Positions 1 through 13,282 of a stretch of DNA of 15,955 nt are shown piece by piece. The translations under genes and the position numbers were made by a program. The notes beneath the pieces are model-generated. The model saw only the letters and a list, made by a program, of their open reading frames with translations, had not been told where the DNA came from and searched no databases. The stretch comes from Candidatus Sigynarchaeum calidifontis (lineage in GTDB: Archaea > Asgardarchaeota > Lokiarchaeia > Sigyniarchaeales > Sigyniarchaeaceae): NCBI GenBank assembly GCA_030587475.2, contig JAUQYZ020000140.1, forward strand, positions 1 through 15,955. Reading direction: 5' to 3'. The first letter of the stretch is position 1. Each line of letters starts with the position of its first letter.

Positions 1-667
1 GAAGATCCTTATAAAACGCCCAATCCGCCTCGATTGCCGATCGACATGCGACACCCGCCAGAACGCTGCTGCAACAATCGATGGTGACGCTCTTGAATTG
101 CGCGAGGTCGGCGGCGAGCTTTCGCCCAGATGCGGGGTCTCCCCCGGTCCGGGTCAAAGAATCGAGTAGAAGTCCCCGGATGGCCAGCGGAGGCTCGAGG
201 ATCCAGCCTTGATAATCGGGCTCCGCGAGCGCGACAAGCCACCCGCCGTCCCGAAGCACCCGGCGGGCTTCCTTGAGTATCGCCGCTCGCTTCTGGAGCT
301 GGTTCCACATGAGAAAATAGTGGCAGAACACGACATCGAACGAACCATCGGGGAAGGGCAATTGTTGTGCATCCACGTGCTTTAATTCTATGTTTTTAGA
401 GAGTTGATCGAGAACGGCGCGTGCTCTTTCCAGGAATGCTTGATTGTTGTCGATACCGACCAGGTGGGCTATTTTTCCGGATTCCAACCGGGGGATGACG
501 AACCGACGGGCGATCTCCTCGAGCAGTGCACCCGTACCGCAACCTAGCTCTAGGAAAGACGAGCGTCCTGCAAAATCCAGCTTCCGGTACACGAAATCGC
601 GGGTAGAACTCGTCCATTCAAGCTGCTGCTTGAAACGGGCGTGCCAGAGGCTCGTTGGCGCGTGCAC
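1..667 (-). CDS. Class I SAM-dependent methyltransferase (Methyltransf_11-like), 3'-truncated by the window edge
   Basis: Manual translation (absent from the ORF track because there is no stop in the window): GTG at 667, (M)HAPTSLWHARFKQQLEWT...FLELGCGTG (motif I)...LVGIDNN...HVDAQQLPFPDGSFDVVFCHYFLMW...EARRVLRDGG...EPDY. The frame is open to base 2. The start codon is inferred. Confidence 0.92.
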   Translation of the reverse strand, partial: MHAPTSLWHARFKQQLEWTSSTRDFVYRKLDFAGRSSFLELGCGTGALLEEIARRFVIPRLESGKIAHLVGIDNNQAFLERARAVLDQLSKNIELKHVDAQQLPFPDGSFDVVFCHYFLMWNQLQKRAAILKEARRVLRDGGWLVALAEPDYQGWILEPPLAIRGLLLDSLTRTGGDPASGRKLAADLAQFKSVTIDCCSSVLAGVACRSAIEADWAFYKDL

Positions 668-716
668 GCGTGACCACGCTCGGTTTATACCGCGTCTCTC
701 GGTGGCGAACTGGATA

Positions 717-723
717 CAAAAAA
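717..723 (-). terminator. Putative archaeal oligo-T terminator downstream of the radical SAM gene
   Basis: T7 run on the minus strand about 25 nt after the TGA at 747-749. Confidence 0.4.
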
Positions 724-746
724 GGAACCAAGACGAGCGAATGTTC

Positions 747-2150
747 TCAGTCGTTCGATCTGCAAATCGTGCCTTGATGCTCCACGTAAAGCGGGCAGCC
801 ACCGCCACAAGTGTCGAGCTGGTCGCACGATCTGCATTTTTCTTGCACGTTGTCCCGGTTACGTATGCGCTTGGCGAGCCGGTGGTTCCATATCTTGCCC
901 CACGAGTCCTTGAGAATGTTCCCGAGCGGCTCGAAATAGGACTGGCAAGGGAGCACGTCGCCATTGGGCTCTATTGCCATGGAAATGTCGGCAGCCGAAC
1001 AGCGCTTCGGGCCGAGGCCGTGGATGACGGGGTTGTACTCGCAATACTGCGTCGGGGAATACCAGATGAACTTGAAACCGTGCTCGCGGGCCTTTGCCAT
1101 GATGCGATCGAGCAACGGCTCCAGCTCGGCCTCGGGAATGCCGTTGCCAACCTCCTTGCCCTTGCCTGAATAGATGATGCCGTTACACGCGAACGTTCCC
1201 TCGAGGCCGATCTCGGCGAGGAAATCGATGGTCTTCTCGATCGTCGGCGCATTGAGCGCGCAGAGCGTCGTGTTGGTTATCGTGTAGACATCAGTAGCAA
1301 TCGCGTTTTTCAAGCCTTGAACGGTCTGCGCCCAGGTGTCGGCACCAACCATTTTGTTGTGAATCGCGGGATCGTGACTCTCGAGCGTGATTTGTATGTA
1401 ATCCAAGCCCGCATTGACAAGCTTCATGAGAAAATCGTTATCGGCGAGCTTGATACCGTTCGTCACGAGCCCGCAGATGATGTTGTTGTCTTGCGTGCAC
1501 TGGATGATGTCAGCCAGGTCGTCGCGCAAGGTCGCCTCGCCGCCCGTGAGGGTGACGTGCGGGACGCCTATGTCTCGCAGCTTCTGGATGACCCGCTTCC
1601 ATGAGTCCGTGTTCATCTCCGGGAAGCTTTTCCCGCGAGCCACGTAGCAATGGCCACAAGCATTGTTGCAACGGTAGGTCAATGCAAGATCCACCCGAGC
1701 GGGAGCACCCCGGCTCTTCATCGCGACCTCCGGCGTCACGCCTTGGAACACGACGGGGCATACATCACGCTGGTGGATGATCGTGTCAATGGTGGACTTG
1801 ATGTTGGCGTAGTCCTGGAGCACCTCGTCGGGTGGCACCTCGTACTTCGATGCCATGAAGCGGCCCACCTCATCGTCCGGTACCTTCTCGATGAACAAGC
1901 GGACGAGATCCGCCGCGGTCTGGTTGAGGTAGATCACCTTCTCGCCGTTGATGCTCAGCGTGCCTTGCCCGTCCGGGCTGATCCGGAGATGATACTTGAT
2001 GTTTCCGAGTTCCTTGTCCTCCACGAGTGCCGCATGGACGGTCGCTTCGCTATGACCTATGATGTTTTTCGGATTGAGGCCCGCGATGAATCCCGACATC
2101 TTTTTCTTGATTTTTTCCATGGTGCTCGCCAGCGCGTTGACGCAATACAT
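747..2150 (-). CDS. Radical SAM/SPASM protein with N-terminal PqqD-like (RRE) domain
   Basis: CxxxCxxC (CNNACGHC) and TGGEATLRDD. SPASM cysteines: CSAADISMAIEPNGDVLPC...CRSCDQLDTCGGGC. The N-terminal beta-beta-beta/helix segment YLNQTAADLVRLF...ASKYEVPPDEVLQDY resembles PqqD. The true start may be ATG 2120. Confidence 0.93.
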   Translation of the reverse strand: MYCVNALASTMEKIKKKMSGFIAGLNPKNIIGHSEATVHAALVEDKELGNIKYHLRISPDGQGTLSINGEKVIYLNQTAADLVRLFIEKVPDDEVGRFMASKYEVPPDEVLQDYANIKSTIDTIIHQRDVCPVVFQGVTPEVAMKSRGAPARVDLALTYRCNNACGHCYVARGKSFPEMNTDSWKRVIQKLRDIGVPHVTLTGGEATLRDDLADIIQCTQDNNIICGLVTNGIKLADNDFLMKLVNAGLDYIQITLESHDPAIHNKMVGADTWAQTVQGLKNAIATDVYTITNTTLCALNAPTIEKTIDFLAEIGLEGTFACNGIIYSGKGKEVGNGIPEAELEPLLDRIMAKAREHGFKFIWYSPTQYCEYNPVIHGLGPKRCSAADISMAIEPNGDVLPCQSYFEPLGNILKDSWGKIWNHRLAKRIRNRDNVQEKCRSCDQLDTCGGGCPLYVEHQGTICRSND

Positions 2151-2266: not shown

Positions 2267-3089
2267 TTAACCCTCTTGCTGAGCAGTTCGCTGCTCTTGC
2301 TTCTTGCCGGGCTGGTTCCGGATCATGTTCACGCCAGTTGCCGCGGCCAAGCTACTAGCGAATCCCTCCAAGCCCGACGGGATGAGGATCATGAGGCTGT
2401 TTTGCTCGGCGCCGATCTCTTGCCACGTTTGTAGCTCCCGCAGCCGCAAAGCATTGGGTGTCTGCGAAATGATAGAAGCGGCCTCGGCAAACTTCTTGCT
2501 CGCCTCTACCTCGGCCTCTGCCTTGAGCTGGCGGGCGCGCTTCTCCCGGATGGCCTCGGCTTCCTTGGCCATGGCCCGCTTCATATTGGGCGGGACCTCG
2601 ACGTTCTTGATTTCCACGGCAGAGATGTTCACGCCCCAGGCATCGGTCGGGGCCTGGATGTCGTTGAGAATCGTGGCCCCGAGTTCTTTCTTGTTCACGA
2701 GCAAGTCATCGAGGGTTCGCTTGCCAATCACGTCTCGCAAGGCAGATTGAGCGAGCAGCGTTGCCGCGTATTCGAAATCCTTCACGTTGAGCTTCGCTTT
2801 CATCGTGTCGAAGACCTTGTAATAGACGACCGCGTCGACGGTAACCGTCGCGCTGTCCTTCGTTATGACTTCTTGTGGCCGCACGTCCATCGTTCTTATG
2901 CGCGTGTCGATTTTAACGAGTTGGGTGATTCCTGGGACGATCCTCGTCAAGCCATGTTGGCGCTTGCCGCGGTATTTTCCTAGCAAGAAAACAAGCCCCT
3001 CTTCCCACTGGGCGATCATGCGAAAGGCCGGACAAGAACCAGATAAACCCGATGAATAAAGCTATGCCGATGATAATGTACATGATCAT
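2267..3089 (-). CDS. SPFH/Band-7 stomatin (slipin) family protein with a +1 frameshift at ~3023-3026
   Basis: SPFH motifs QEVITKDSATVTVDAVVYY, AQSALRDVIG, WGVNISAVEIKNV, AMAKEAEAIRE, ALRLRELQT. GAGGTG SD plus ATG at 3089 encodes a TM anchor MIMYIIIGIALFIGFIWFLSGL. It joins RMIAQWEEG only if one base of GGC-CTT-T-CGC is skipped, giving 273 aa. Confidence 0.9.
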
Positions 3090-3172: not shown

Positions 3173-3210
3173 GTGCGCGTAATCATCAAATCTTCGACCA
3201 GACCGTGTTG

Positions 3211-6200
3211 ATGCCTTTCATGAAAAACCGAACCTTCACGCTCGTTTACATCGCATTCTTCGCTCTTCTTCTTACTGCTACGCCAGGGACCAATTTTCTT
3301 TTGGATTCGGGGATCGCCACCTCGGCAGGGGGTGATAAGAACATCAACTGGGACCCTTCCATAGCTCGCTCTTTCATCACGACCCGTATCGAAAAACAAG
3401 CGAGCCAAGCGAGTGATCTGGACAATTTCGACATTGAAACGCCATCGTACGTGGAATACACGAACATGACCTTGGAAAACATCGAGATCAAGCCGTTCAT
3501 TCATGATTATGAATCGGACATAACAACATCGCAAATGGCGAATGGCTTTTGGGTGACTGAATTTTATCAAGAGATCAAGGTCCCGACGAGTTGTTATATC
3601 CCTTGGATCGCGATCCAAACACAATTCGGGAACGTGGGAAGCAATGCTGACAACTGGACGATCTCCTTGTACTCCTCGATCCAGGAATCACCCTCGCCAC
3701 TGGCTAAACCAGACAAAGAAATTGCTGGAACGGCCGTTACCATGAATCCTGGCGACAACCGGTTCCCGTACAACAACGTGAATTATAACAAGCTGCACTG
3801 GGAAAACATCACGATGCCAAACGTTCTCCTCGACGTGTCAAACGCCTACTCGCCAGACGGGATTTCGTTTTCCTTTTTCGTTTGTGCGAGGATTCCAGCG
3901 CTGAGCGGCGCCCATCATCACTGGTATTGCAAGAACGACACCGAGACCGGGAGCACGGATGACGCGGGGAGGGCGTTTCAATATGTTTATGTCCCCCTCG
4001 TCGGGGCATTGTCTGAGTTGCCGGGGATCGATTTCACGCTCGTTGCCAAGCTCGTGCCTGCCAATGCACATCCAAACCCGTCGGATATCGCATTAAAGGT
4101 GAATGGTGAGCCAGTGATTGACACGGGTGCTGCCAAGGGCATTTATATCACGAACGAGCGATTCACCGCGGTGAACGGGAAGGTATCATACGCGATCTCG
4201 AGCAGGTGGAGCAATTTCGGGCCCGGATCCTTGCGCTATGACCTATCGGCCGATTGCATCCAAGGCACAGAGGTATATCCGAGCCTCAAGGCCGTTGTAC
4301 AAGATGCTGGAAGCCTCGTAAACTGGACATTGGATTACAACATCAGCTTCGTTCAAACCTCAGGGTTCAAGACCGCGAACTTGACCGCGTTTTTGCCACT
4401 AAGCTGGAATAGTATCATTTTCTTTAATGTATCGGGCGGATCTCCATCATTTTGGCCATCTATGACCGATATTACACCCACGGGAAAAACGCGTGAGTTC
4501 TTGGCAACGGGCATAGAGCCGGGCAAGTGGAGGATCTGCGGGGTTTCCAACCAACTCGCCGGGAGCGCCTCGTTGAACCTTGCTGGAGGCTCGATCAACT
4601 TGGATGCAGTCCTTTCCGGGAACATTTCGGTACCGAACGGGCCGAATGGAAGGACGACATCCCTAAGATCGGATTACGAGGGAGGTATACGCTCGTTCAC
4701 GGCATTGGCATCAGTCGCCAACGACACTTTCATGAAGCGGTTGTTATTGCTCGATAACAAGTCGATCCAATTCTCGAGCTCGTCAACCAACAATTTCTGG
4801 TCGTTGTTGTCCATGCTCAAACCGGAATTGCAAGACGACGTGATCGAGCTCGGCGTTGCAAACGAGATGGAGCTGTTCATCGATCCTACAGAGGGATTTC
4901 GCGCGGAAAACGTGCAAGATATCGAGATATTGCTAGATCACGAGCCATTCTGCAAAAATTTCTGGTTGATGAATGTTTCCGCGCTGGCCATGCAAGGGAA
5001 CACGCATTGGAACCAGGGCGGGGTGCCACTAAAAAATTACTTTTGGTTTGGACTGGGGTTCCTCGGCACGATCAACGTGAACTTCACATACGACAACGTG
5101 GGCAAGCATTACAGTGACTTCTACATGAACTTCACCGCGCGAATCCGCAGCAACATGACAAACGAGATAACCCGTGATCTCGTGAAAAACATATACCTCG
5201 ATATCAAGACCGATTTCCCGTTCGACACGACAACCCACGCGTTGTATATCAAGAACCAGAAGAGCGGGTCTTTTGTCAGGATGAACTCGACCTGGACCGA
5301 AAAAAACGCGCAAAACCAATCCCACGCCGTCTGGAATAGCACGGCCGAATTCGGATCCATGGACATCATTGATTTCATCAACCCGACGCGGAACACGGTC
5401 GAGACGTTCTTGCGCGTGACGAACACGACGACCTTGGGGTCAACAGCTCCAAGTAGCCACGTGGTTTACATGGTGGGCAGTTTCGAGTACGAAAATCCTT
5501 TCCAAAACCTCACCATGGTCCTTTATAATTGGACGAAACAAGCCTTTGATAAGCAGATCCTTTTTTCGGGTTTCACCCCTGCCAAAATTGCCACGCGATT
5601 CGATCTCGGGGGGTCGCTTCCAACAATATCGTCGTATTTCAATGCAAACACGAGCTCGGTTCGAATCACCATGCGGGGCTCGGCCATCGTGCCGCTGCTG
5701 AATAGCTTCAAGTGGGCAATCGACAGGGCGATGCTCAACGTCACTTACATCGATTTCGTTCGCGCCACGTGGCGCCAAACCGTGTACAAAGAGGACGGGG
5801 CCGCGGTGATGAATCAAGTGAACACCACGCTGTTTGATTCGCCAAGCAACAACTTCACGACGAACATCAAGGTCAACAAGTTCCTCGATTTTTGCGACAA
5901 TTACACCTACGAGATGTTCTGGCACAACGGGACCGACATCATGGAGGTCGAGGTTCCCTTCCAGGTGAACCGCACGTCGATTGGCCTCCGCATCATGACC
6001 ACGCTCGATGGCTCGCCGTTCCGTGCGGGGGATCTGCTCGATCTCAACGCCCGACTTTGGTACGTGGAAAACGAGACGAGTATTACTGGCAAGACCATCC
6101 TGTTCTCGTTCTCGATCGAGTACCGGAGCGGCTTGCACGGGACGGAGGTCTTCGCCGCGGTCACGGACGAATCGGGCGTAGCCGCGTGTCATGTGAAACT

Positions 6201-7101
6201 GCCAGATAGCTGGCGAAACTTTTACGTGATTGCGCGCTTCGATTCGGACAATCCCCGGCTACGCGATGCCGTCACGAATCCTACTACGAAATCTGACGTG
6301 CTAGACCTCGGCGAATACGTATTACACGTCATCACCCAGAATGCCCTTACCATCTCGATATTGGCAGCGCTCATCCTCACGATGGCTCTCGTCAAGCGCA
6401 AGCAAGACCAGAAGCGGCGCCGCGGGTGGATGATAGACGCGGGAAAGCTACGCGATGCAAGAAAGATACGAATGCTGATGGTCATCCACAAGGACAGTGG
6501 CGGCTGCATCTTTCAAAGGGCCTACACCCAACAAAGCCTCGATGGCGACTTGATCTCTGGATTTTTAACAGCGATCACCGACTTTAGCAAGGAAATCGGC
6601 CCGCGGGGAGGCGATGCACTGAAGGAAACCGATGCGATGTATTTCGATTATCAAAATTTCAAGATCCTCATTGCAAATGGAAATTTCTGCAGAGGAGCGA
6701 TCATCCTCGATGGTGAACCCACGGAGAACTTGAAGGCCAACTTGAAATACTTTATCCGCACGTTCGAGCAAAAATATAACATGGAGAATTGGCGCGGGAA
6801 CGTGGCCATGTTCTCCGACGCTGACGAGCTCGTCGAGGCTGCGTTCGAGGTCTCGCTCTTGCAGGCCCTCGTCGCCAAGAAAATGACGAGGCAAGAAGCC
6901 GAAAAATCCATCCCTTCTGGTTTAGGAAAAGCCCTCTTCCAGGTCGCTACATCCATCTCGGCGGAACAAGGTTACTTCGCGCTGTCCACGCTGGCCATGT
7001 ATGCCCCCACCAGCAAGAAAATATCGAAGGATCAAGTACTCGCCGAGATCTATCGCCTCAAGCGACGCGGGCTCATCGTACCATACCGATATTACACTTG
7101 A
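3211..7101 (+). CDS. Large single-pass membrane glycoprotein: sequon-rich ectodomain, Ig-like juxtamembrane domain, cytoplasmic longin-like plus winged-helix-like domains
   Basis: Signal or anchor MKNRTFTLVYIAFFALLLTA; about 29 N-X-S/T sequons in the ectodomain (manual count); Ig-like AVTDESGVA; TM ALTISILAALILTMALV followed by KRKQDQKRRR; longin-like IRMLMVIHKDSGGCIFQRAY...DGDLISGFLTAITDFSKEI; C-terminal QVLAEIYRLKRRGLIVPY. Start could be 3205, 3211 or 3220. Confidence 0.88.
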   Translation: MPFMKNRTFTLVYIAFFALLLTATPGTNFLLDSGIATSAGGDKNINWDPSIARSFITTRIEKQASQASDLDNFDIETPSYVEYTNMTLENIEIKPFIHDYESDITTSQMANGFWVTEFYQEIKVPTSCYIPWIAIQTQFGNVGSNADNWTISLYSSIQESPSPLAKPDKEIAGTAVTMNPGDNRFPYNNVNYNKLHWENITMPNVLLDVSNAYSPDGISFSFFVCARIPALSGAHHHWYCKNDTETGSTDDAGRAFQYVYVPLVGALSELPGIDFTLVAKLVPANAHPNPSDIALKVNGEPVIDTGAAKGIYITNERFTAVNGKVSYAISSRWSNFGPGSLRYDLSADCIQGTEVYPSLKAVVQDAGSLVNWTLDYNISFVQTSGFKTANLTAFLPLSWNSIIFFNVSGGSPSFWPSMTDITPTGKTREFLATGIEPGKWRICGVSNQLAGSASLNLAGGSINLDAVLSGNISVPNGPNGRTTSLRSDYEGGIRSFTALASVANDTFMKRLLLLDNKSIQFSSSSTNNFWSLLSMLKPELQDDVIELGVANEMELFIDPTEGFRAENVQDIEILLDHEPFCKNFWLMNVSALAMQGNTHWNQGGVPLKNYFWFGLGFLGTINVNFTYDNVGKHYSDFYMNFTARIRSNMTNEITRDLVKNIYLDIKTDFPFDTTTHALYIKNQKSGSFVRMNSTWTEKNAQNQSHAVWNSTAEFGSMDIIDFINPTRNTVETFLRVTNTTTLGSTAPSSHVVYMVGSFEYENPFQNLTMVLYNWTKQAFDKQILFSGFTPAKIATRFDLGGSLPTISSYFNANTSSVRITMRGSAIVPLLNSFKWAIDRAMLNVTYIDFVRATWRQTVYKEDGAAVMNQVNTTLFDSPSNNFTTNIKVNKFLDFCDNYTYEMFWHNGTDIMEVEVPFQVNRTSIGLRIMTTLDGSPFRAGDLLDLNARLWYVENETSITGKTILFSFSIEYRSGLHGTEVFAAVTDESGVAACHVKLPDSWRNFYVIARFDSDNPRLRDAVTNPTTKSDVLDLGEYVLHVITQNALTISILAALILTMALVKRKQDQKRRRGWMIDAGKLRDARKIRMLMVIHKDSGGCIFQRAYTQQSLDGDLISGFLTAITDFSKEIGPRGGDALKETDAMYFDYQNFKILIANGNFCRGAIILDGEPTENLKANLKYFIRTFEQKYNMENWRGNVAMFSDADELVEAAFEVSLLQALVAKKMTRQEAEKSIPSGLGKALFQVATSISAEQGYFALSTLAMYAPTSKKISKDQVLAEIYRLKRRGLIVPYRYYT

Positions 7102-7180: not shown

Positions 7181-8488
7181 TTAGAGATCTGCACGCAAGG
7201 GCTTCAATAACCGCTGGACCATCTCGTCGATGAGCACGTCCCGCGCGGAGCCAACCTCCCTCTCCATCTTCTCGCACCATGCGCGCAGCTCGGCCATGCT
7301 AGCCTCCTCGCCGTTCTTGAACGCGTTGGAGTAGTACGCGAGGGAGATCATCGATTGGAGGTTGCTTGCCGTCTCCTCGTTGGCCACGGATGGCCCCGTC
7401 TGGTTCAACACGATGTCGGTGAAGTAAAGTACCTCGCGCTCGTGGGAATCCCGGTTGCCGTACTTGTCTATCTTGGGGTGTATGGTCTCGAGCAGCTTGC
7501 CCTTCTTGTCGTAGACCTCGACGACTTGCTCTCCCCCCTTAATCACGTTGGGGGACAGCACGCCGTCCGTGCCCTCTATCTTGCACAAGCCTTGTATGGG
7601 CATGCACCACGCGGTCTCGAGATTGAGCTTGAAGTCGTAACCTTTCGGATGCCTGAGTTTCACGATGAACTTCGCGTAATCTTCGAGTTCCAGGTTTTTC
7701 CACGAGTTCTCGCCGATGTATGTCGTCATCTTGCGGGTCGTGTTGCGTTTTTCCATTTTCTTGACGCGAACCGACTGGACCTCGATTTTCTCGTTGGGTT
7801 TCCCCTTGAGCCATCCTAGCGAAGCCATGGCCAGGCCGAGCGCGTGCACGCCCAAATCCTGGGTGCAGCCGCCCCCGTTCAGGAGCGGGGTGAAAAAATG
7901 GCTGTTCCAGCCCCACGAGGGCCCCGTGTGGCCGAGCTGTGCTGTAACGGAGCGTATGTCCCCGATCTTGCCCGCGCACAGTGCCTCTCCCATCGCGCTC
8001 CAAAGAGGACGGAAGAATTCATTTTCGTTGATCTGGTAGAGGCCCTTGGATTTCTTGGCCACTTCGATGAGTTTCTGGGTTTCCCACCACGACCGAGCGG
8101 GCGGTTTCTCGGACATTGCCGACTTGCCGTGTTCCAACGCGATCATGGAGTACGGGATGTGAAACTTGTTCGGCGTGCAGATATCGAGCGCATCCACCTC
8201 GTCGAGCACTTCCCAGATGTTGTCCGAGACGCCGCGCTCCTCGAGCGACGTGACCGCGTATTCCAGTCGATCGATCATCGCCGTGTTTTCGGGCTCGTCT
8301 TCCTTGTAATATTCAAGGGCGGGCTTCAAGTGGCTGTTTAACATTTCATCGAAGGATTTCTTTGCCCTCGATGGATACACGTCGATAAAAGCTACCGGAA
8401 CTGCATTCATGTTTTCAGGATATGCTAGGGAGTGTGATCCAAAGATACCGCCACCTCCCACGATGCCAACTCGCAAATATTTTACCAT
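7181..8488 (-). CDS. Gfo/Idh/MocA family NAD(P)-dependent oxidoreductase
   Basis: Rossmann start LRVGIVGGGGIF, ICTPNKFH, SEKP motif and GGGCTQDLGVH. ATG 8488 is preceded by GGTG and is preferred over TTG 8506. Confidence 0.93.
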   Translation of the reverse strand: MVKYLRVGIVGGGGIFGSHSLAYPENMNAVPVAFIDVYPSRAKKSFDEMLNSHLKPALEYYKEDEPENTAMIDRLEYAVTSLEERGVSDNIWEVLDEVDALDICTPNKFHIPYSMIALEHGKSAMSEKPPARSWWETQKLIEVAKKSKGLYQINENEFFRPLWSAMGEALCAGKIGDIRSVTAQLGHTGPSWGWNSHFFTPLLNGGGCTQDLGVHALGLAMASLGWLKGKPNEKIEVQSVRVKKMEKRNTTRKMTTYIGENSWKNLELEDYAKFIVKLRHPKGYDFKLNLETAWCMPIQGLCKIEGTDGVLSPNVIKGGEQVVEVYDKKGKLLETIHPKIDKYGNRDSHEREVLYFTDIVLNQTGPSVANEETASNLQSMISLAYYSNAFKNGEEASMAELRAWCEKMEREVGSARDVLIDEMVQRLLKPLRADL

Positions 8489-8880
8489 GCACCATCGCAC
8501 TTCCAATGCTTGTTGTTCGAAGAAAGACGATCGAGAGCCAACGCGGGGTTTTCAAAAAGATATAGTTAGAAAGCGAATGGTCAAGAAATACAAGGAGGGG
8601 CATTTCTGCCTCGATTGCTTGATCCGCGTCCGCATCGCTAACAGCATTCACGGTTGTATATTCACACGGATCACCGGATTCACCTTTTTTTCCGCAAAGC
8701 TCAATGTTTTCAAGTTTTTCCTAGGACATTGAAATGTAGAATCTCGCAAGGTGAACCCATTTCTATTAACCGGGCAACATTGCTTCCGGTGAAGGCGGAC
8801 TGGATGGCGTCCGCCCTGGTGCTATGTGACCCGAACCATACGTGATCGATGCTCGCTATCGGGATTCGTCTCGCGGCCAT
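8415..8880 (-). pseudogene. Frameshifted hypothetical gene (~154 aa if the A5 run at 8715-8719 were A4)
   Basis: GGGGGT SD plus ATG 8880 gives 56 aa (MAARRIPIASIDHVWFGSH...ILHFNVLGKT*). The +1 frame continues LENIELCGKKGESGDPCEYTTVNAVSDADADQAIEAEMPLLVFLDH... to TGA 8415, filling an otherwise empty 400-bp gap. Its 74-nt overlap with the oxidoreductase start lowers confidence. Confidence 0.5.
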
Positions 8881-10956: not shown

Positions 10957-12381
10957 TCAAGCGAACAAGATCGCCACTTCTATCGCGAGCACGGTGCAAG
11001 CCAGGGCGACCACGACGGGCATGATCTTGAACCCTTGCTTGGCGAATTCCTTGTAGGTGATCTTGATGCCATTGGTCGACGTGATCGAGGACCACATGAT
11101 GCCAGCCAGGGCACCGATCAAGGTAAAATTCGCCCCGAAATTGCTGCCCATGATGAGCGCGTACAGGCTCGCGATGACGATACCCGCGGGAGCTAGCGAC
11201 GTGAAACTGGTATCTTTCAACAAACGCGTGAAGAGGATGGTCATGGGCTGGTTGTTCATGATGTTGCACGTGAGCGCGGAGATGAAGCACATGGCAAACG
11301 TGCTACCGATGACACCGGCCGAGGAAAGCATCTCACCGAATGCGCTTGCTAGAAAGCTTACCCAGCCGGAATAACTGAGGATCTCGACCATGATGAACAT
11401 GCCGAACACGAAGGGCATGATCTTCCAAGGCATGCGCTTCGCGGCGACTTTCACCGAATGGAACAAGCCCCGGTTAGATCCCGGCTCTACAATCGGGTTA
11501 TCCTTCGTGGCAATGGCACGCCCCGCGCGGACACGTGCCTCGAACGCGATATCCTTCCCGATCATGATGATGGCGAAGATCAAGCAGATGATTCCCATGT
11601 CAAGGCCGATGATCGGGGCAACCATGAGGAAACCGAGGCAAGTGCCGAGCATGGCGATGCTGAAGACAGCACCTGGACGATCCTTGAGTGCATCTTCCGG
11701 CTTTATATCGGGCGGGGATAGCGGCTGGCAAATCTCTTTCCGGAAGGCGACCGCGAGGAGACCATAGCACGCAAACCCGGCCGTCACCGTCGGAAGGATC
11801 ATCCACGCGGAATATTGAACGAACGTCAAGCCATATGCTTGTGCCACGATGATGTTCGTGGGGTTTCCGATGTATAACGTTATGCTCCAGATATTCGCCG
11901 CAAAGAATTGCCCGATCAAGTAAGGAAATGGATTTTTTTTCGTGTATTTGCAGAAATACAGGATGATGGGCGTGATCGTGAGGATGACGATGTCATTGCT
12001 CGTGAAGACCGTGAGCACGCTGCTCAGCAAGAAAAAATACAAGAACAGCTTCTTGCCGGACGAGCCCGATTTTTTCGCGGCGCTCAAGGCGAGATACTCG
12101 AAAAAGCCAGTCAAGTCGATCGAGATGCAAACGTAGGCAAGGGAGAAAAACAAGATGATGATCATGTACGGCCGGATCGTCGCCGTGCCCAAGATGCCAC
12201 TGACGAGCACGGATGGTGGAACCTCGAACGTGAGCAACGTAATAGCGACGCCGATCAAGGGCGCATAGCCATAATCGAGCTGGAACGGCTGCACTCGCCC
12301 GGGTAGCTTTATACGGAGTGGCTTGAGGATGAGGATGATGACGAGGGCAAATACCACGAGCGAGATTATGGTGATAAGCAC
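10957..12381 (-). CDS. ArsB/NhaD (IT superfamily) anion permease
   Basis: Roughly 12 or more hydrophobic segments; FTSNDIVILTITP, ANIWSITLYIGNPTNIIV, MNNQPMT and GSNFGANFTLIGALAGIMW. GTG 12381 avoids overlap with the upstream gene. Confidence 0.9.
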   Translation of the reverse strand: MLITIISLVVFALVIILILKPLRIKLPGRVQPFQLDYGYAPLIGVAITLLTFEVPPSVLVSGILGTATIRPYMIIILFFSLAYVCISIDLTGFFEYLALSAAKKSGSSGKKLFLYFFLLSSVLTVFTSNDIVILTITPIILYFCKYTKKNPFPYLIGQFFAANIWSITLYIGNPTNIIVAQAYGLTFVQYSAWMILPTVTAGFACYGLLAVAFRKEICQPLSPPDIKPEDALKDRPGAVFSIAMLGTCLGFLMVAPIIGLDMGIICLIFAIIMIGKDIAFEARVRAGRAIATKDNPIVEPGSNRGLFHSVKVAAKRMPWKIMPFVFGMFIMVEILSYSGWVSFLASAFGEMLSSAGVIGSTFAMCFISALTCNIMNNQPMTILFTRLLKDTSFTSLAPAGIVIASLYALIMGSNFGANFTLIGALAGIMWSSITSTNGIKITYKEFAKQGFKIMPVVVALACTVLAIEVAILFA

Positions 12382-12403
12382 GCGCGCCCTAAACGCGGGC
12401 GGT

Positions 12404-12412
12404 CTTAAAAAA
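12404..12412 (-). promoter_or_regulatory. TATA-like box for a probably leaderless permease transcript
   Basis: TTTTTTAAG centred ~27 nt upstream of GTG 12381. The same TTTTTAAG occurs at 14424-14431, upstream of the TPR gene. Confidence 0.5.
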
Positions 12413-12448
12413 CCAGCCAGAATCGGGATATAGTAGTGAAAAAAAGGT

Positions 12449-13282
12449 TTAAGGGGGTCCCGTTTTCGCTGCAGCTTTCGACGGGCGTACGAAGCCAAAA
12501 TACATCATGACCGACATGCACAGCAACAAGATCGAGAGCAACAAGTCGAGCGGGAAGTAGACCTTCTTGAAAGCGACCGTACCCAACGCGGACAGGTAAA
12601 AAATCGCCGAATAGCCGATCATCGACAGCCCACGCTTCGCCCACTTGTCCGTTGTCCGCTTGACGAGCGCGTAGGTGGCGCGGAACTGCCACGTGCCGAG
12701 CGGAATGATGATCGCGATCATGAAAAAATAAGCGACATACGTGGACACGAGGACCGGCATTAACGCGGGCCATCCCATGAAGAAAAAAACTGCACACGCG
12801 TTCAACACGGCAAAAATGGTTTGGGAGATAGCGTGATCCTTGAACTTTAACGTGCCCGTGAAGATTTCTTGCAAAAACAAGAAGAGCATGATGATCGTCC
12901 ACGACAAGAAAATGAAGATAACGGCTTCCACGGCGTTCCGGAACACCTCCGACGTGAACGTCGTGTATTTCCTGATCCCGTCCCAGGTGAGTCCCCCGGC
13001 TAGCACGATGTTCATAGTGGCGAGCAACAACGGCGTGTCCTTCTTGTTGGACAAGAATTTTCCCAGGAGGGACAACCCGATGATCAACAACACGGCGGCC
13101 GCAGAAAACAAGAGGATGCTATTGATGACGACGAATTCCGCTGGTACCTTCGCCAGCATGTCCGCCTCCATTTGCCATGAAAAGCCCACGTCGAACCCGA
13201 GACTCGCGGCCTTGAGTAGGAGCCACGTGGGAAACAAGACGATGTACATCACGTTGATGATCCAGTAGTATCTTCGCTCCAC
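12449..13282 (-). CDS. Hypothetical polytopic membrane protein (~8 TM; 1+7 layout)
   Basis: Eight hydrophobic segments, ending MYFGFVRP. GAGGTG SD lies 6 nt before GTG 13282, and a T7 tract follows the stop. Confidence 0.85.
   Translation of the reverse strand: MERRYYWIINVMYIVLFPTWLLLKAASLGFDVGFSWQMEADMLAKVPAEFVVINSILLFSAAAVLLIIGLSLLGKFLSNKKDTPLLLATMNIVLAGGLTWDGIRKYTTFTSEVFRNAVEAVIFIFLSWTIIMLFLFLQEIFTGTLKFKDHAISQTIFAVLNACAVFFFMGWPALMPVLVSTYVAYFFMIAIIIPLGTWQFRATYALVKRTTDKWAKRGLSMIGYSAIFYLSALGTVAFKKVYFPLDLLLSILLLCMSVMMYFGFVRPSKAAAKTGPP

Follow-up and report, generated by a model that had tools for sequence, protein, structure and literature searches.

The giant gene and its predicted membrane topology

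The stretch analysed here ("the window") is the whole 15,955-nucleotide contig JAUQYZ020000140.1 of Candidatus Sigynarchaeum calidifontis (C90 in our numbering), which comes from a 4.99-Mb assembly that is 89% complete; the host phylum is Asgard (Promethearchaeota). It carries a gene for a giant protein that is predicted to cross the membrane once, with a sequon-rich ectodomain outside the cell and a 235-amino-acid (aa) tail inside (Table 1). The tail is a conserved cassette of three parts, i.e., a juxtamembrane helix, a domain that takes a longin fold in its model and a winged-helix-like domain, and this cassette occurs phylum-wide behind many unrelated ectodomains.

The gene occupies a single open frame (3205-7101, + strand), which opens with a GTG at 3205 and has ATG starts at 3211 and 3220. 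Counted from 3211, the product has 1296 aa, and the identical database record (P0002) begins at the ATG at 3220 and has 1293 aa. A look-up of sequencing runs containing the gene listed none, RNA runs included, and so carries no information on its expression.

Table 1. Coordinates in the window of the giant gene, the parts of its product and the flanking genes
Feature	Position	Strand	Basis
Whole gene, predicted type-I membrane glycoprotein, 1296 aa	3211..7101	+	open reading frame list, translation, database record
Signal-peptide-like segment: basic n-region, hydrophobic residues 8-26	3211..3291	+	hydropathy scan
Ectodomain, ~1,017 aa, 29 N-X-S/T sequons, no known family	3292..6342	+	sequon count, homologue comparison
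Membrane-proximal stretch, residues ~919-1020, common to otherwise unrelated giants	5965..6270	+	BLASTP alignments
Single transmembrane helix, core residues 1045-1061	6343..6393	+	hydropathy
Basic juxtamembrane helix, tail residues 1-24; conserved W12, A16, D21	6394..6465	+	AlphaFold2 helix 2-24, charge, conservation
Longin-fold domain (modelled), tail residues 25-156, b1 b2 a1 b3 b4 b5 a2 a3	6466..6861	+	AlphaFold2, Foldseek, VIA, conservation
Small winged-helix-like domain (modelled), tail residues 157-235	6862..7098	+	AlphaFold2 of domain alone, VIA
Methyltransferase and PqqD-like/radical-SAM/SPASM genes	2-2150	-	
Band-7/SPFH gene	2267-3019	-	
GFO/IDH/MocA oxidoreductase gene	7181-8506	-	

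A hydropathy scan of the 1296-aa protein found only two hydrophobic segments, at residues 8-26 and 1037-1063, and the second is followed directly by KRKQDQKRRRG, a positive-inside cluster. Residues 1-1044 contain 30 N-X-S/T sequons, compared with 14.3 ± 3.4 in composition-matched shuffles, so the enrichment is well beyond chance; one of the 30 is at residue 6, which leaves 29 in the mature ectodomain. The tail contains none, where 0.76 would be expected. All ten full-length homologues that we compared (overall identity 30-58%) retain seven of the sequons, and five more are kept in eight or nine of the ten. The same asymmetry appears family-wide: 159 representatives have 3.87 sequons per 100 aa upstream of the tail module but 0.46 within the module, an 8-fold difference, and 133 of the 159 have a transmembrane-like segment no more than 45 aa upstream of the module.

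Because of the two hydrophobic segments, the positive cluster, and the asymmetry and conservation of the sequons, we predict a type-I, single-pass protein (N-out/C-in) with its tail inside the cell. It has what type-I N-glycosylated archaeal surface proteins have, namely a signal peptide, a sequon-rich outer part, a single transmembrane helix and a positive-inside tail, and judging by its sequons it is probably a heavily N-glycosylated surface protein. An earlier reading made from the letters of the window (the sequence-only reading) had proposed both a sequon-rich ectodomain set against a sequon-free tail of ~235 aa and a single type-I transmembrane helix with a positive-inside cluster, and both proposals hold up.

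Fold of the cytoplasmic tail

We modelled the tail with AlphaFold2 from an alignment of 60 modules (A1), which gave a predicted local distance difference test (pLDDT) score of 92 and a predicted template modelling (pTM) score of 0.85. Helix 2-24, whose mean net charge across the 60 members is +5, continues the transmembrane helix as one rigid helix into strand b1. After it, DSSP assigns strands at residues 25-32 and 38-43, a helix (a1) at 51-68, strands at 82-86, 89-95 and 99-105, and helices at 111-128 and 137-156. The result is a five-stranded antiparallel sheet in the order b1-b2-a1-b3-b4-b5-a2(-a3), with no N-terminal helix packed on it, and on this model residues 25-156 fold as a longin domain. 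The sequence-only reading had placed a longin-like domain at ~6466-6846, which is nearly the same extent.

Foldseek of the tail model against the PDB returned longin or roadblock chains for all of its top 50 matches (E about 1e-4, probability 1.00), including AP sigma, zeta-COP, TRAPP Bet5/Trs23, VAMP7, MglB, LAMTOR and the Rag C-terminal domain. An exhaustive VIA search aligned 105-140 residues over model residues 19-156 at Z ~9-12.6, and its matches were the small and medium subunits of AP5, AP4, AP3 and AP2, TRAPP, CPLANE, VAMP7, Sec22, Ykt6, Mon1-Ccz1, SRalpha SRX and the Lokiarchaeal longin 8yqg. Sigma-adaptin, TRAPP and Mon1 were the matches that the sequence-only reading had expected for the C-terminal 235 aa, and all three are present. 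Longin chains align with their own residue 1 at model residue 24 and continue through 156, whereas roadblock chains (Z 9.5-11.4), whose order is a-bb-a-bb(b)-a with an N-terminal helix packed on the sheet and one C-terminal helix, align only from their own residue ~24, past the N-terminal of these helices, and stop at about model residue 130. The longin variant therefore describes the tail better than the roadblock variant, given the strand order and the alignment of longin chains from their first residue.

The same fold and strand order are found in AP sigma/mu, zeta/delta-COP, TRAPP Bet5/Trs23/sedlin, Mon1-Ccz1, CPLANE Fuzzy/Inturned and SRX, with a root-mean-square deviation of ~3 Å, and these eukaryotic platforms share with the tail a place at the cytoplasmic face of a membrane. 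Unlike them, the tail is fused through a transmembrane helix to an ectodomain of >1,000 aa and has a winged-helix-like domain after its longin part; sequence identity to them is 6-18%. Soluble longin and roadblock proteins of Asgard archaea (8yqg, 9jue, 9jq8, 7yh1, 7f8m; Z 9.5-11.4) belong to the same phylum, fold superfamily and expansion, but the tail differs from them in being anchored by a transmembrane helix behind a giant ectodomain. The longin SNAREs VAMP7, Sec22 and Ykt6 (Z 8.7-11.6) also hold a cytoplasmic longin domain at a membrane. Their order, however, is longin, SNARE motif, transmembrane helix, whereas here the transmembrane helix comes first, a giant ectodomain is added, and the longin part is followed by a globular 79-residue domain, not by a coiled coil or SNARE heptad segment.

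Conservation within the tail is strongest in helix a1, which carries the signature D-x-D-L-I-S-G-F-L-x-A-I-x-x-F-x-x-E (D50, L53, G56, F57, A60, F64, E67). Further conserved residues are Y86, I91, G96, A102, P109, F120 and E125, together with W12 and D21 in the juxtamembrane helix. Conserved residues lie in a1, in loops and in the juxtamembrane helix, as would suit a surface for specific binding that is kept at a set distance from the membrane. A predicted homodimer of two tail copies (residues 20-235) scored 0.01, which gives no verdict and is evidence neither way.

Some longins are catalytic GTPase-activating proteins (GAPs), and a tail of this type would, like folliculin, SMCR8 or NPRL2, switch off a Rag/Arf-like GTPase at the membrane. 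The longin fold is in keeping with this, the GATOR1 chain 8fw5_C is among the matches (Z 9.4), and Asgard longins of the FLCN/SMCR8 type, with a GP motif and an arginine finger, exist (PMC12290439). However, the tail lacks the GP motif, which is specific to GAP longins and is found where the b1-b2 loop ends or b2 begins (PMC12290439). The loop reads H32-K33-x-S35-G36-x37, in which K33 and G36 hardly vary; position 37 is occupied by V/T/A/L/G, and in the 60 members proline is never the majority residue there. The sole well-kept arginine, R100 (50/60 members), speaks for a GAP, but it lies inside strand b5 rather than in a loop, and GAP longins are not the best structural matches, with GATOR1 in the middle of the range and aligned over the longin part only. 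An NPRL2/NPRL3-like architecture, in which a longin is joined to a C-terminal domain, likewise finds no support here, and our literature search gave no paper that connects NPRL2 with a winged helix. We regard a GAP role as highly improbable.

A small-ligand sensor is another use to which an alpha/beta sandwich could be put: it would bind a metabolite, like its GAF/PAS-like relatives, and report the state of the cytoplasm outward (inside-out control). Longins have been grouped with PAS/GAF-like folds (PMC4917890), and in the model the rigid run of the transmembrane helix into strand b1 would be a geometry able to transmit a conformational change. GAF and PAS chains are nevertheless missing from the best 50 matches of both searches, which are all longin or roadblock, and we consider a sensor scarcely probable.

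The C-terminal domain was also modelled alone, using a second alignment (A2), with a pLDDT of 89.8. In its own numbering, the model has helices at 12-18, 22-38, 43-47 and 58-70 and short strands at 5-7, 41 and 74-76; the reference topology of a winged helix is a three-helix core in which H3 is followed by a beta-hairpin wing (H1-S1-H2-H3-S2-W-S3). For this domain, Foldseek gave no match at E<=1e-3. In the VIA search most of the best 50 matches were titled winged-helix proteins, at Z 5.2-6.7, where the reliability mark of VIA is Z 8. They include the methionine aminopeptidase-2/Ebp1 insert, ORC/Cdc6, cullin WHB, Fur/PerR/Zur, MecI, RPA32C, the MCM C-terminus and the N-terminal region of MccB. 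We therefore call the modelled domain winged-helix-like with moderate confidence; the helical, winged helix-turn-helix (HTH)-like end of the sequence-only reading is borne out in its topology, at scores below the mark.

A winged helix can suggest a membrane-tethered transcription regulator, ToxR/CadC-like or released by proteolysis, whose end would bind DNA upon events at the ectodomain. The topology, the weak matches to Fur/PerR/Zur, MecI and ArsR-type regulators and the net charge of +8 in this protein's domain all agree with such a role, and related Atlas clusters partly carry HTH_47 or TrmB, as leads only. Across the family, however, the net charge of the domain runs from -8 to +8 (mean +2.3), and the conserved positions are mainly hydrophobic, not basic, so a family-wide DNA-binding role is disfavoured. 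Many of the matches are themselves protein-binding winged helices (cullin WHB, RPA32C, ORC/Cdc6 WHD), all Z are under 7, and many paralogues carry the longin part alone; no Pfam HTH family matched in the tails. A regulator of this kind is very unlikely in our view, and we think contacts with other proteins a likelier task for the domain than DNA binding. The sequence-only reading had likewise suggested an interaction module rather than a DNA-binding one, and charge and hydrophobic positions favour that part of it. It had also compared the module with ESCRT-II, and for this part we found no support: no ESCRT-II chain is among the 50 VIA matches listed, an absence that does not exclude the family.

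Family distribution and mosaic history

We scanned 1.84 billion cluster representatives with the 235-aa tail using HMMER and found 908 proteins at E<=1e-3, including 354 at E<=1e-10. The match of ~225 residues is mostly C-terminal in proteins of 900-1900 aa, and minimal proteins of ~250 aa, consisting of a transmembrane helix and the module alone, were also matched. Every relative that carries a name is an Asgard archaeon, labelled Sigyn-, Loki-, Hod- or Helarchaeota. A locus scan of 185,579 species genomes, which used a closer sequence set (A4), confirmed 30 loci, every one of them in Promethearchaeota (Odin, Hel, Thor and Loki bins among them). In the Atlas, the three structures nearest to the whole module, with template modelling (TM) scores of 0.81-0.83, are Promethearchaeota clusters of hypothetical proteins. 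Within the phylum, the profile from alignment A1 matches 135 of 151 sampled genomes at E<=1e-10 (70 of the 72 high-quality ones), usually several times per genome, and a word-index search with A1 for short forms found two proteins only.

The genome of Ca. S. calidifontis itself has 38 module matches. Six are giants with a transmembrane helix and the module (1296-2037 aa), one is a minimal protein of 272 aa with the same two parts, and several are soluble forms. About a dozen others are proteins of ~370 aa with 5-7 transmembrane helices and a C-terminal longin part but no winged-helix part, for example L012:760-1887 (+), L014:766-1881 (+), L021:760-1878 (+), L013:1375-2616 (-) and L025:1453-2673 (-). 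None of these multipass proteins has a Pfam family, and they represent a second mode of tethering a longin domain to the membrane. Full-length likeness to the window protein is confined to one paralogue of this genome (contig C233, 36% identity); with the others, the common part is the membrane-proximal stretch, the transmembrane helix and the tail.

Four matches in this genome contain a single in-frame TGA each, and these could be pseudogenes, assembly errors or recoding. Three are longin-module matches and one is a Rag-like GTPase match (G000:C192:33446-33865 (-), C53:33286-33696 (-), C213:28775-29167 (-) and C118:6870-7304 (+)).

Two close relatives (loci L032 and L033) keep the gene order around the giant gene, which allows its parts to be compared with their genomic background. 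The flanking proteins are 69-94% identical (78-94% for the nearer L032) and the tail is 74-88% identical, whereas the ectodomain is only 34-35% identical. The opposite pattern is seen with P0003, which is not syntenic and whose genome is less closely related (aIF5B 79% identical): here the ectodomain is 57% identical and the tail 45%. When identity to the syntenic protein P0004 is followed in 20-residue steps, it is 35% at residues 1041-1060, i.e., in the transmembrane helix, and 90-95% from residue 1061 on, so the jump sits at the inner face of the membrane. Given this break and the P0003 pattern, the outer part and transmembrane helix have had a different history from the cytoplasmic part. 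The cytoplasmic part tracks the genome, and the outer part was either swapped or has diverged much further than its genomic background. Either recombinational replacement of a cassette or extreme diversification with the tail held constant could account for this, and a mosaic of this kind is what one would expect if a molecule for recognition or adhesion kept its inner function constant.

The ectodomain itself belongs to no known family. Its profile (A3) had no match among PDB sequences, and Pfam on 11 ectodomains gave only a weak MG4 match in 2 of the 11 members, with none over the cut-off. An Atlas feature lead of "Lectin_like + Big" for the protein scored 0.84, which shuffled proteins often reach as well, and we treat it as no more than a lead. 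Alignments made with BLASTP to P0009 and the paralogues begin at the membrane-proximal stretch, which is probably a beta-sandwich.

As for the surroundings of the locus, the methyltransferase and PqqD-like/radical-SAM/SPASM genes diverge from the giant gene and the oxidoreductase gene converges on it, with counterparts at L032:5420-7661 and 11812-13119 and at L033:949-3181 and 7462-8805. These enzymes might modify the surface protein, on its peptide or its sugars, or might reflect mere stable synteny. The Band-7/SPFH gene, which stands between the radical-SAM and giant genes and is not in L032 or L033, is a local insertion adjoining a membrane-protein gene. After its GFO/IDH/MocA gene, L032 has a second giant gene (13241-17002, -; 1253 aa) with a faint InhA-like MAM match, where the window has purine-nucleoside-phosphorylase and HypD genes, so the surroundings have also been rearranged. 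On the Sigynarchaeota-labelled contig of P0003, whose ectodomain is the closest to that of the window protein, an arrestin-like gene (L031:189-1196, +; Arrestin_N, with Arrestin_C faint) lies ~100 bp upstream of the giant gene and in the same direction.

The tail as a possible docking platform

We consider it most likely that the protein is a variable surface adhesin or receptor with a constant inner docking module. The ectodomain would be the variable part, used for recognition, adhesion or as envelope, and the constant tail would act as a membrane-tethered platform that holds a cytoplasmic partner at the site of the surface protein, and so couples or positions surface proteins relative to internal machinery. 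To our knowledge, the longin platforms characterised so far all have a small GTPase, a SNARE or a coat component as partner. By analogy with these, the partner would most likely be a small Arf/Rag/Rab-like GTPase or another longin/roadblock protein. Taken as a whole, this explanation (a glycosylated surface protein with a variable ectodomain and a docking tail) has, in our estimate, about even chances of being right. The sequence-only reading had suggested a type-I receptor or adhesin that relays surface contact to GTPase or membrane-remodelling machinery, which we regard as a reasonable hypothesis only.

Two known arrangements resemble this model. In Ragulator/LAMTOR-Rag and in MglB-MglA, a roadblock/longin sandwich held at the membrane recruits a small GTPase, and LAMTOR, Rag C-terminal domain and MglB chains are all among the fold matches of the tail. 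Ragulator, however, is lipid-anchored and built of roadblock dimers, while the tail is a longin variant carried by the transmembrane helix of a surface glycoprotein, for which GTPase binding would be by analogy only. Variable type-I receptors and adhesins (integrin-like logic) are alike in having a glycosylated ectodomain, a single transmembrane helix, a conserved tail and an exchangeable or fast-evolving outer part. This too is analogy only, and no relation of the ectodomain to integrins or cadherins, by sequence or fold, was found in the Pfam and PDB-sequence searches.

Several results weigh against the docking explanation. A shared fold by itself proves no function; SNARE regulators and coat subunits are built on longin-like folds too. 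The longin part is not recovered by sequence profiles: a Pfam scan of the 1296-aa protein found no family at E<=1, and Pfam on 60 tails and 10 paralogues found none over the cut-off. The winged-helix assignment has Z values below the VIA mark. The curated longin families (Pfam Longin, Sybindin, Clat_adaptor_s and others) do not claim the tail by profile, and neither the tail nor profiles A1 and A2 found anything significant among PDB sequences. Below threshold, Sybindin matched in 2 of 60 members at E 1e-3 and in one paralogue at 20.4 bits (cut-off 25), and MAPKK1_Int matched in members or paralogues of the tail family. Gene neighbourhood gives no lead to a partner: apart from the giant gene itself, neither the 16-kb contig nor the surroundings of the syntenic orthologues contain a GTPase, roadblock or longin gene. 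Around 37 module loci of the genome, 5 small-GTPase genes lie within 5 kb, compared with 4.3 ± 2.0 by chance (p=0.44). In another subfamily a GTPase gene does follow 1.5-2.8 kb downstream in 10 of 13 loci, but on the opposite strand. We rejected GTPase neighbourhood as support for a GTPase model in this gene and genome, where there is no enrichment.

That recurrent downstream GTPase is probably inherited synteny, because it is on the opposite strand and belongs to a block with an RsmB/F methyltransferase and DUF2070. The block extends up to 6 kb downstream of one giant subfamily in other Asgard genomes (L035, L042-L055), in the order [RsmB/F methyltransferase] - 270-aa uncharacterised (+) - 180-aa uncharacterised (-) - 175-aa Arf/Ras-like GTPase (-) - 241-aa uncharacterised (-) - DUF2070 (-). 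The block or its first two genes occur at 15 loci, 11 of which include the GTPase, and block genes F1, F2, F4 and F6 gave no match to the tail profile.

Candidate partners are plentiful nonetheless, since the genome of Ca. S. calidifontis has about 75 small GTPase genes, and for part of the family one locus shows a link. On contig C118 (L038, 2149-8417 (+)), a paralogous giant of 1477 aa with the same tail module has two GTPase genes downstream in its own direction, the first 87 bp away and the second 43 bp further on. They encode a Gtr1/RagA-like GTPase (209 aa) and a Ras/Rab-like GTPase (358 aa, with a 180-aa N-terminal extension). This is the only giant in the genome with adjoining GTPase genes.

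The main competitor to the docking explanation is a passive anchor, or a sorting or clustering cassette: the tail would retain, oligomerise or sort envelope glycoproteins, for example into an unordered surface coat or the protrusions of cultured Lokiarchaeia, with no GTPase partner and no signal. A cassette that sits behind many unrelated ectodomains, and even behind a bare transmembrane helix, is what one would expect of a generic anchor, GTPase linkage is seen neither at the locus nor genome-wide, and cultured Lokiarchaeia have no S-layer but numerous complex surface proteins (PMC9834061). Yet a two-domain module of 235 aa that is 74-88% identical where the ectodomain is 34% identical goes far beyond the needs of anchoring, the invariant residues in helix a1 and the loops point to a specific binding surface, and one paralogue has two GTPase genes directly after it. 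We rate such an anchor as possible but doubtful.

For the architecture itself, the literature we searched gave no description of a transmembrane-anchored longin behind a giant glycosylated ectodomain; this search did not cover the asCOG tables or Klinger et al. 2016, which is reportedly the source of the Loki longin census. Asgard longins that have been described are soluble or are fused to GTPases, TRAPPC3, Vps28-C/adaptin parts or two-component domains. There are 41 longin-like domains in Lokiarchaeum (PMC4917890) and 130 asCOGs of the Roadblock/LC7 superfamily (10.1101/2020.10.19.343400), and structures of soluble members have been published by Tran et al. 2024 (PMC10933270). The sequence-only reading had called the protein the best candidate for an undescribed system. 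This stands for the membrane-receptor architecture, which is undescribed in the searchable literature, but not for the fold superfamily or its lineage-specific expansion in Asgard archaea, both of which are well known. What is new here is the three-part anatomy of the tail, the pan-Asgard cassette, the set of paralogues with multipass anchors, the lack of a GAP motif and the break at the inner membrane face.

How the dozens of longin/roadblock proteins and small GTPases of Asgard archaea are wired together is a standing question. In cultured Asgard archaea, complex surface proteins coat protrusions to which a role is ascribed in cell-cell contacts that matter for eukaryogenesis (PMC9834061). 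A family of this kind, multi-copy and pan-Asgard, is a concrete and testable physical link between the cell surface and eukaryote-like internal machinery, and the 235-aa tail, once purified, could serve directly as bait in a search for partners. The conservation break, with outer parts exchanged or diversified and the inner module constant, is as expected for recognition molecules. In its most specific form, which we put forward tentatively and think rather unlikely as it stands, our proposal is that the tail may be the receptor-side docking site of an Asgard outside-in (or cargo-sorting) system, where it would recruit an Arf/Rag/Rab-like GTPase or a longin/roadblock partner to its place at the membrane while exchangeable ectodomains sense partners or surfaces. 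If true, the receptor-adaptor-GTPase logic that eukaryotes use in trafficking and adhesion would have a forerunner in prokaryotes.

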